Shown: positions 16,901 to 19,900 of the stretch, in pieces
Numbering within the stretch: position 1 is the first letter of the stretch
Layout: every line of letters starts with the position of its first letter
NCBI GenBank assembly: GCA_965153355.1
Contig: OZ231126.1
Coordinates: 2,170,001-2,234,000 of the forward strand
Reading direction: 5' to 3'
DNA length: 64,000 nucleotides
Source: Flaccisagitta enflata
Lineage: Eukaryota
The notes under the pieces: model-generated
Databases searched by the model: none
Seen by the model: only the letters and a program-made list of their open reading frames with translations
Told to the model about the DNA's origin: nothing
Position numbers and translations under genes: made by a program

Positions 16901-19900
16901 GGCTCACATCTTTCCTTAGACTAAATAGACAAACATTTTATCCGCCAATTTCTTCACCTGTCGATCTATGGACCTATGCTTCTACCCATGACCGGACTGA
17001 CGGCCATGCCCTTATATGGCTTTATTTTTGGCCTTATATAATGTCGCAAAGTGACTAGTTACAGAAACTGTCAACGAAAACTAGAGAGAGGCTTCTGTGA
17101 ACTTTTTATCAAATTACCGCATTTTGAATAAATCTGACAAATTGAACGACAATTTGAAGAGCGCCTTTGAAGCTTTGATCGGTGACACTTTTGCTCGTGT
17201 CAATGACAAACACGACGTCGACTCTGACATGACCGCACTCAGCCGATCGTTCGCAACTTCGACCATCATCCTGCAGAGTGAGTGTTTCTACTAAAGATGA
17301 AAAACGTGTTTGTTACCGTTGAAAGCATTTACAGCGTGAAGACATATTCAAGAATTTTAACTGTCCCACGAGGAGTGAGCAAAGTGGGTGAGCGAGCCCG
17401 TGAACGGAGCAAGCAAGCAAAGCGAATATAGCAAAGCGGAGCGCTGAAGAGTAAATGAGCGGAGTGAGCGGTGCGAGCGAACGAACGTAGCGAGCGACCG
17501 AGTGGCCGGTTCAAAACGTGATTGTCTCTGACTAGAAACCTGCAGAGTGAATCCAGTCAGGCACTCGCAACCCGCAAACACGTTTCCATTGTACTCGACG
17601 CAATTTTGTTGACATCCTCCGTTGTGATCGTCGCAAGTGGAAGAAGCAGTCGAACATATCAAGCCTTGGCCAATCTCATCGTTGAAGAACTAGAAGGCAG
17701 GTGAAAACAAAGCTGAATTACTCTGGGGACAAAAAAAATAAAAAGGTTCCCAAACGAATAAAGCTATAGACATTGGAGGAAGACGATACCGTGGAAGATG
17801 ACGACGCAGAGGGGCCTCAAAGGGGACTGATGCTGATCAAAGGCAAAGGGTCACTACCCCCTCTTTTAAACGAGGCCAAAAAAAAAAAAAAAAGGGAAAA
17901 AAAAAGAGCGGAGGAATAAACTAACCGCGGCCTCTATCTATCTTTACAAAGGCGCCAGATGGCTGTTTTTGTGCCCTACGGTGCATGTATACCACATGAT
18001 GCGTTTCTTTTATGGATTTTGCGAGTCTTACAAATGTTATCGGTTTTTCTTGTTTATTATTTACAGCGAGGCTGTATATATATATAAATGTTGCCGACTT
18101 CTACATGTGTTTCATGTACTGTTTCTCATATTGCTCGTTTGTACATTAACAATGTACCTGTATTGACTATAATGGGGATCGCCCAGGACAAGTCGTCCAG
18201 AGCAATACCACCGTCTTTTATCCCGTATAATTATGTCGGAAATCCCGACTTAAGTGTGATACCCCCTCCCATAGATTACCGTTGTGCTGCTGTGTAAACA
18301 TTTTCCCCTATGGAGGGAATAAATTTGTTTTCATTTCATTTCATCTGATTAGCCCCTGTTTAAAGAGTTGTTGACTGTATCACAATACTTTGTCACAATA
18401 TCGTTGCGGACGGGTGAGCAGGGGCATTCAACTAACAGCCTCTCCCCCAACCTCCCTCCAACACACGCAGACACACACACGCACACACACGCACACGCAC
18501 ACGCACACGCACACACACACACACACACACACACACACACACACACACACACACACACACACACACACACACACACACACACACACACACACACACACAC
18601 ACACACTATACCAACTGCAGCATCATGAATGCGCGTTTTTCGCGTTTTCAACTCGAGCGCGACGGACCGACGGTGTGTGAGTGAAAGTTCTGAATAAAGT
18701 TCTGAATAACTGACTGACTGAATAAATGAATAAATGAATAAATGAATGAATGAATGAATGAAATTAGAAGTGGTTTGGCAGTAGGGAATGAAGAAGGACA
18801 TTGAAATCGGCCATAATGCGCGGTTTAAACGTTTGCATGACGAATGGACCGACCAATCGACCGACAGACAGACATGACCTCTTATAAATGGTGTTTGCGA
18901 TTAGGCGCATAGTCGGCATCGTCATATAGAATTCGAAAAAGAGAACCTTTTTAGTTGCGGACACGCAACTCTACAAGAGGTTTTGTCCATAGTCCGTCAG
19001 TTGGTCAGTCTGCAGAGGTGATTGTGTCGAAAAGTGGCAAAAAATGAGTGTTTTGGATACTTTTTATGAATGTCTGTGTATGGAATGGGGTGTGGATGGG
19101 GGTTGGATGCCCCTGCCCACCCGTCCGCAACGATATTGTGACCCCGCGTCACTTGTTTTCAATTTACCTCGTCAATCTTTGGATTCTTGTAGTCGTCAAC
19201 TAGCAAAACTCTTTGCTTATTTCCGCTGATTTTTTCCAATTCTTCAATTTCCTCTTTTTCGAATCTTCTTCCAATTCCGATGCTCCAGACTTGACGTTCT
19301 TCTTGGCCTTGGACTGCGTGGACACTTCCGCCGCGAAGTTCGGCCGCAGTCTGTAGTAACAGGTCCTCGTATTTCGAGTCACATTTCCCGTCAGTCACCA
19401 CAATCGTGTATTTCCGGGCATTTTTCCTGTAATTGTGAGAGTTGAAGTTTGGGACACATTTTGCTGAATTGTCGCATCATAAAAATGTATTCCTCTTGGT
19501 TTTTTCCACTTTGACGTCATGAGCTCATCCATACATACATCCATCCATCCAGCATCGTTCCATTCATCCATCCATCCATCTATCCATCCAACAATCCATC
19601 GTTCTATCCATCCATCCATGTGTCCGTCAATTAAATCCATCTATCCATCTATCCATCCAGCCATCCATCCATCCATCAGTCGATCCATCCCTCCATCCAT
19701 CTATCCATCCATCCATCCATCCATCCATACTTCCATCCATCCATCCATCCATACTGCCATCCATCCATCCATCCAGCCATCCATCCATCCATACTTCCAT
19801 CCAGCCATCCATCCATCCATCAGTCGATCCATCCCTCCATCCATCTATCCATCCATCCAACAATCCATCGTTCTATCCATCCAACCATCCATGTGCCCGT

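Follow-up and report, generated by a model that had tools for sequence, protein, structure and literature searches.

Can a fragment of a transposable element that has entered a protein-coding exon serve its host gene as a new intron? This question is raised by a 269-nucleotide (nt) insert in a gene of Flaccisagitta enflata that encodes a protein with repeated EGF and VWA domains. The gene lies on the minus strand of the stretch of DNA analysed here (GenBank assembly GCA_965153355.1, contig OZ231126.1, positions 2,170,001 to 2,234,000 of the forward strand), which spans 64 kb and is referred to as the window; all positions below are counted from its first letter. An earlier note on this DNA had proposed that the insert is a precise intron with splice sites derived from a 12-base-pair (bp) target duplication, and that the element family behind it may generate introns in an animal genome. 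We give the first proposal a probability of roughly 0.45: the arrangement of the locus suggests that the insert may be spliced and may work as a new, weak intron. For an intron-generating family, the other copies in the window and in the protein database provided no evidence.

The insert (17539..17271) splits exon D1 (17689..17118, minus strand), whose 303 coding nt have phase 0/0 and encode an EGF-like domain (Pfam FXa_inhibition) that leads into the first part of a VWA domain. On the minus strand, the exon side of the left junction reads GGATTCACTCTGCAG and is followed directly by GTTTCTAGTCAGAGAC; the element that adjoins it starts with GTTTCTAGT. At the right junction, 269 nt further on, the order is CATCTTTAGTAGAAACAC, TCACTCTGCAG and GATGATGGTCG, where the element ends with TAGAAACAC and is succeeded by TCACTCTGCAG and GATGATGG. 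A repeat search located the 12-mer TCACTCTGCAGG on both sides of the insert, at 17550-17539 and 17281-17270, in two copies that lie 269 nt apart and are identical at 12/12 positions. No third occurrence was found in the window on either strand. As the final G of the repeat could equally belong to the element, the duplication comprises either 11 or 12 bp. In the first copy (17539..17550), the first 11 nt are exonic and the last G is also the G of the candidate donor GT (17539-17538). The second copy (17270..17281) holds the candidate acceptor CAG, with its AG at 17272-17271, and the downstream exon half starts with the last G of this copy. The candidate intron, which was delimited by sequence, alignment, reading frame and splice-site scores, thereby runs from GT to AG over 269 nt (17271..17539). 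Of these, 258 nt (17282..17539, from GTTTCTAGT to TAGAAACAC) are homologous to the element family, as determined by blastn and nhmmer matches to sister copies, by alignment, and by the consensus of 51 database open reading frames (ORFs) described below.

If the insert is retained, the frame of the exon reads about 60 codons into the element and then meets a stop codon (ORF 17357..17689). If 17540 is joined to 17270, a single open frame results, in which the end of the EGF domain (GFTLQ, then DDGRSC) leads into the start of the VWA domain. The 5' half of the exon (17540..17689, preceded by the acceptor ...ccttctag) encodes the N-terminal part of the EGF-like domain up to GFTLQ and matches the EGF-type profile FXa_inhibition with an E value of 3.8e-05 over profile positions 1-30 of 36. 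The 3' half (17118..17270, beginning DDGRSC) encodes the end of the EGF domain and the VWA start (Pfam VWA, E 4e-05) and is followed by the donor GCG/GTAATT at 17117. As a DNA structure, the insert is a whole candidate intron that is bounded by GY..AG and whose removal would restore the coding sequence.

Two further properties of the insert were recorded. An 11-nt perfect inverted match connects exon positions 17575-17585, 35 nt upstream of the insertion, with the subterminal region of the insert at 17302-17312; the chance expectation of such a match in a 421-nt stretch was estimated at about 0.02. In the predicted minimum-energy RNA fold of the 269 nt, the two ends pair with each other, and the folding energy is ordinary (-54 kcal/mol, z -0.15). 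As 74 of 200 shuffled versions folded equally well, the segment gave no sign of a special structure.

The architecture of the host gene provides internal controls for the state before the insertion. At least five tandem modules of the gene lie within the window. Modules B, C, and D consist of three exons each, coding for an EGF domain plus the VWA start, the VWA middle, and the VWA end; in module B, a further intron divides the first of these exons. Module E has no EGF domain at its start, and module A runs beyond the edge of the window. Every module exon that we found is open, including the remaining exons of module D, which have kept their conserved motifs. The closest named relatives are animal matrix proteins, namely collagen VI-like proteins and matrilins, with 32-44% identity. 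With the insert removed, the frame of module D is colinear, without any indels, with all three paralogous modules that carry the exon, and in none of the three does an insertion interrupt the homologous position. According to alignment and Pfam matches, the paralogous EGF plus VWA exons C1 (11500..11808, minus strand) and A1 (1624..1920, minus strand) are uninterrupted and read GFTLAEDG (at 11.6k) and GFELESDG (at 1.78k), respectively, across the homologous codon. The corresponding unit B1 (8908..9808, minus strand) reads GFELTEDG (at 9.07k) and is likewise uninterrupted at this site.

These results bear out the anatomy put forward in the earlier note: the 12-mer on both sides in GT..AG register, a length that is not a multiple of three (269 = 89x3+2), the restored coding frame, and, as detailed below, the membership of the insert in a repeat family. 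Its statement that the three paralogues are uninterrupted holds for the homologous site in 3/3 cases, though not for the whole exon of module B, which has an intron of its own at 9712..9109 (minus strand). The latter interrupts the EGF domain at a point 17 codons upstream of the homologous site, and modules A, C, and D lack it. It is a second paralogue-specific intron in the same domain. It contains an inverted repeat with 64-nt arms (9239-9302 and 9573-9636) that are 72% complementary, and it is also present in a near-identical relative, as the flank of the database protein P0018 translates the 3' end of the intron (98% over 86 amino acids).

We also searched protein data for counterparts of the modules. 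Near-identical counterparts were found for module B (P0018, 98% over 86 amino acids) and module C (P0001, 96%). For module D, the 3' exon half gave no match at E <= 0.001 against longer proteins, among which three candidates shared short words with it, and the 67-amino-acid ORF had no match among proteins of similar length. The 110-amino-acid ORF that combines the EGF half with the element yielded 51 matches, every one of which covers the part encoded by the element, while the EGF half was matched by none. In these protein searches, the orthologous site of module D was thus seen in neither the filled nor the empty state.

The insert belongs to a family of short repeats. A blastn comparison revealed sister copies at 16232-15989 (79.5% identity) and, on the opposite strand, at 11250-11476 (76%), as well as a partial copy at 61.1k. 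The insert is therefore 76-80% identical to its two fuller sisters, and an nhmmer profile built from three copies recovered all four copies in the window, the insert with an E value of 3e-93. The first sister (15833..16238, minus strand) has the same orientation as the insert and resides in the intron between exons D2 and D3; a nested repeat of about 137 nt (15984..15848) divides it, and 17 nt separate its right terminus from exon D3. The second (11244..11481, plus strand) lies in the opposite orientation in the intron after exon C1, 18 nt past the exon end, and has intact termini, GGGGGCGTTTCTAGT and CTAGAAACACGCCCC. As in a miniature inverted-repeat transposable element (MITE), its ends form terminal inverted repeats (TIRs), GGGGGCGTTTCTAGT / ACTAGAAACACGCCCC. 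The fourth copy (61022..61218, minus strand) is partial and diverged (blastn 72%; nhmmer E 9.5e-26). Both fuller sisters sit close to splice sites without forming them (15833 / 15815, 17 nt before the acceptor; 11481 / 11500, 18 nt after the donor).

The same ends recur in the database. The 51 database proteins match the insert-encoded half of the 110-amino-acid ORF exclusively and differ in their flanks; thus, the family must be abundant in public assemblies. Their consensus, GGVSS...LETRP, corresponds to the DNA termini GGGGGCGTTTCTAGT and CTAGAAACACGCCCC. Of the 40 copies that show the left junction, 21 have GG, 17 have a one-residue variant in which one glycine is kept, and 2 differ otherwise; the right junction is visible in 29 copies and reads LETRP in 26. 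One frame of the element is open over its full length, and gene callers have consequently produced at least 51 spurious database 'proteins' (P0151-P0201). No Pfam family covered the element-encoded stretch in any ORF with listed match positions. Credible domains were found in 2/51 ORFs, PET (E 1e-11) and Carn_acyltransf (E 1e-4), both of them in the flank; two further matches were weak (E 0.004 and 0.009), and the one that could be located was in the flank as well. Pattern scans of metagenome contigs and genome contigs with two conserved element motifs returned no matches, and a search of the ESM Atlas with the flank of P0181 gave no usable match. The family is thus a short, non-coding TIR element of the MITE type with a length of 238-270 nt and a high copy number, as shown by its four members in the window and another 51 among the database proteins.

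The ends of the exon copy are unusual for this family. Compared with the sisters in the window and the 51 database copies, about 6 nt (GGGGGC) are missing from its left end and 5 nt (GCCCC) from its right end, as had been noticed before, and the places of the missing termini are occupied by duplicated exon sequence. A full-length copy altered by point mutations can be rejected, as the 6 nt to the left of GTTTC match GGGGGC at only one of six positions. Retrotransposition was rejected, too, on account of the inverted family termini and of the lack of an A-rich or microsatellite tail at either end. At the exon copy, the duplication spans 11-12 bp. At the sister copies it does not exceed 6 bp, inspection by eye of these few DNA copies having given AAG/CCAAGG at most at 11.3k and none at 16k. 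The exon copy thus has neither the normal termini of its family nor a target duplication like those of its sisters. Because both ends are truncated and the duplication measures 11-12 bp, cut-and-paste by the family transposase is a poor fit. Instead, the copy shares two features with neointrons formed by break repair: a repeat of the exon end of 11-12 bp and inserted DNA that is not a complete mobile unit. Most likely, a truncated copy was captured during the repair of a staggered break, an origin that the earlier note had offered as its alternative and that we favour over canonical transposition.

According to this model, a truncated copy of the abundant, about 240-270-nt TIR element would have entered the EGF-coding exon of one EGF-VWA module. 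The fragment would have been captured at a staggered break, and fill-in of the overhangs would have duplicated the target over 11-12 bp. With the duplicated target ending in CAG and the truncated element beginning with GT (or T), the event would have created CAG/GT on the left and CAG/G on the right. The donor would then stem from the interior of the inverted repeat of the element and the acceptor from the second target copy, and spliceosomal removal of exactly 269 nt would restore the original mRNA. The product would be a young, weak intron that is spliced at least partly. As to its age, the nearest database copy shares 86% amino-acid identity with the insert, and the subfamily structure makes any dating of the insertion unreliable.

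To what extent do the splice sites agree with such an intron? Weight matrices were built from 14 donors and 12 acceptors of the same gene, taken from exon boundaries that are conserved among the paralogues. The candidate donor CAG/GTTTCT scored 6.31 bits and was the best-scoring GT of the whole exon. In leave-one-out scoring, the real donors ranged from 2.31 to 11.02 bits; 3 of the 14 fell below the candidate, and one of the real donors reads CAG/GTTTAT. By our own arithmetic, an AGGT register at the junction of a 12-bp duplication is expected for about 4-5% of random insertions. Since chance provides this register so rarely, the survival of a spliceable insertion is favoured.

Several observations weigh against a functional intron, above all at the acceptor, which is weaker than the earlier note had implied. 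The frame-restoring acceptor scored 1.88 bits, within the range of the real acceptors (-4.45 to 9.62) but higher than only 3 of the 12. Two AGs 20 and 17 nt upstream (TTTAG with its G at 17291 and TAG with its G at 17288; 17288..17292, minus strand) reached 6.37 and 9.96 bits, respectively, behind the pyrimidine run TTTTTCATCTTT. None of the 12 real acceptors has an AG within the 22 nt upstream of it, whereas the candidate has AGs at -17 and -20. Use of the acceptor at 17291 would lead to an in-frame TAG, and use of that at 17288 would add 17 nt and shift the frame. Furthermore, exon D1 is symmetric (phase 0/0, 303 nt) and could simply be skipped; the matrices comprise just 14 and 12 sites; and an intact ORF is no proof of selection. 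A mitigating case is found in the same gene, where the conserved acceptor of exon D3 has the TAG of the sister terminus 26 nt upstream. Thus, a TAG need not block an acceptor downstream of it.

The most serious rival explanation is that the insert is a disruptive allele, a prospect that we rate as substantial, if somewhat short of an even chance. The element would then be left in the transcript, or mis-spliced at the upstream AGs with a premature stop and decay as the result, or the whole exon would be skipped. The insertion may be recent and possibly polymorphic on the sequenced haplotype, and one damaged module among at least five may be tolerable. The two stronger AGs behind the better pyrimidine tract fit this explanation, as does the AG-free zone, which extends over at least 22 nt in 12/12 real acceptors and over 16 nt in the candidate. 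Skipping of D1 would preserve the frame, and the complete identity of the direct repeats is consistent with a recent event. Moreover, 3 of the 51 database matches, full-length copies of the family, come from a marine metatranscriptome source, which indicates that some copies are present in RNA and that the element is not always removed from it. What speaks for splicing instead is the exact GT..AG register, which chance alone would rarely have provided, the rank of the donor as the best GT of the exon, and the integrity of both exon halves and of the module exons downstream.

The family-wide claim of the earlier note fared worse. It appears unlikely that the TIR family is a genuine animal intron generator with many copies that make up whole introns, including the copies at 17.3k and in P0177, each of which would draw one splice site from its inverted repeat and the second from its target. 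Very unlikely in our estimation, too, is the notion of a true Introner family, for which the creation of introns by ordinary transposition would be routine and the exon copy one of many. Certain properties of the family are compatible with this notion. Its copies are abundant and often genic (four in the window, three of them in one gene, plus 51 ORF-encoded ones elsewhere), and its inverted repeat places GT...AG close to both ends, whichever way the element is oriented. Introners in which the target duplication supplies one of the splice sites have been described (PMC9860276). The database ORF P0177 contains a carnitine-acyltransferase-like coding stretch (Pfam E 1e-4, residues 2-45); 1-2 codons separate the end of this stretch from the left terminus of a family copy, and the junction reads ..LLKKG then EGVSS... 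P0177 may be a second exon/element junction and constitutes a lead at the protein level. In P0178, a PET-domain exon follows 9 codons after the complete right terminus of a family copy. Against this stands the fact that none of the three other window copies coincides with an intron, the third being partial and its context lying outside the comparison. Two sisters are located inside older introns, since the positions of the D2-D3 and C1-C2 introns are common to all paralogous modules and these introns thus predate the copies within them. Nor is any of the 51 database copies a demonstrable whole intron: recognisable coding sequence on both sides was found in 0/51, and a credible domain beside the element in 2/51. 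Finally, the single copy in an exon is the one with non-canonical ends and a duplication of atypical length.

That the assembly is at fault here, or that the element took the place of an earlier intron, is most improbable. Assemblies can misplace repeats, but nothing specific points to this. A perfect duplication of unique exon sequence stands on both sides of the insert, and the difference of 20-24% between the insert and the other window copies argues against a collapsed or misjoined neighbour. The whole 269 nt are accounted for by the element plus one repeat copy, so that nothing of an earlier intron is left.

Clear cases of intron birth in animals are rare. If the insert is spliced, the locus would offer a clean snapshot of intron gain, in which a single gene displays the source of the inserted DNA, the duplicated target, and three paralogous sites that are empty. 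Transposon insertion and break repair, the two routes chiefly proposed for intron gain, would moreover be linked, in that a transposon fragment would have been captured at a break. If it is not spliced, one module of a repetitive gene would have been disrupted by an ordinary insertion. Should the TIR family generate introns after all, a new animal lineage would join the very few with Introners.

Other repeats are present in the window. The repeat of about 137 nt that is nested in the 16k sister copy (15848-15984, minus strand) has a (GGTT)n core; a 73%-identical copy occurs at 60.4k (60392-60500), and a further one at 5143-5188. A BEL/Pao retrotransposon at 51891-54237 (minus strand; Pfam Peptidase_A17 and Integrase_H2C2) has a Q-rich ORF on either side, in two nearly identical copies that are inverted (43466-46138, plus strand, and 56114-58979, minus strand). 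BEL/Pao elements are not known from organisms other than animals, and the retrotransposon, like the matrix-protein relatives, suggests an animal genome. Within the introns of the gene, there are long microsatellites and short-period repeats at 15270-15570, 18430-18600, 20090-20280, and 19480-20060; according to the ORF listing, the types include a trinucleotide run, (GT)n runs, and a CATC-type repeat.

How does the locus compare with known systems of intron gain? Introner families have 5 to more than 2,000 members in a genome (PMC9860276). The survey of 3,325 genomes by Gozashti et al. (2022) located Introners in just two groups of animals (PMC9860276), to which Gozashti et al. (2025) added a sea urchin and a tunicate (PMC12130899). 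Like Introner-derived introns, the candidate intron is made up of a non-autonomous element and a single copy of the target duplication (PMC9860276, PMC12130899). The element would supply one splice site and the duplicated target the second, and removal would leave the length of the mRNA unchanged. Unlike in Introner families, a single such copy is seen here, the family termini are missing, and the other copies examined form no introns. The duplication of 11-12 bp also exceeds the 3-9 bp quoted for described families, and the likeness to Introners lies in a candidate intron that is read from the sequence alone.

The second precedent is provided by the neointrons of Daphnia, which arise at staggered breaks and repeat the adjacent exon end over 4-12 bp (Li et al. 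2014, PMC4202315). The repeat of the adjacent exon end at our locus, 11-12 bp, resembles theirs. The source of the inserted DNA is mostly unknown in Daphnia, whereas a recognisable transposon fragment is present here; conversely, presence/absence polymorphism and splicing were demonstrated for the Daphnia neointrons (PMC4202315), while the present insert is a candidate.

With an ordinary exonic MITE insertion, which yields a loss-of-function allele, the locus shares the small TIR element, the abundant family, and the flanking duplication. It departs from such an insertion in that the termini are missing, the duplication is longer than at the sister copies, and the GT and AG stand in exact register. 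Overall, the structure is a plausible candidate for a known kind of intron gain.

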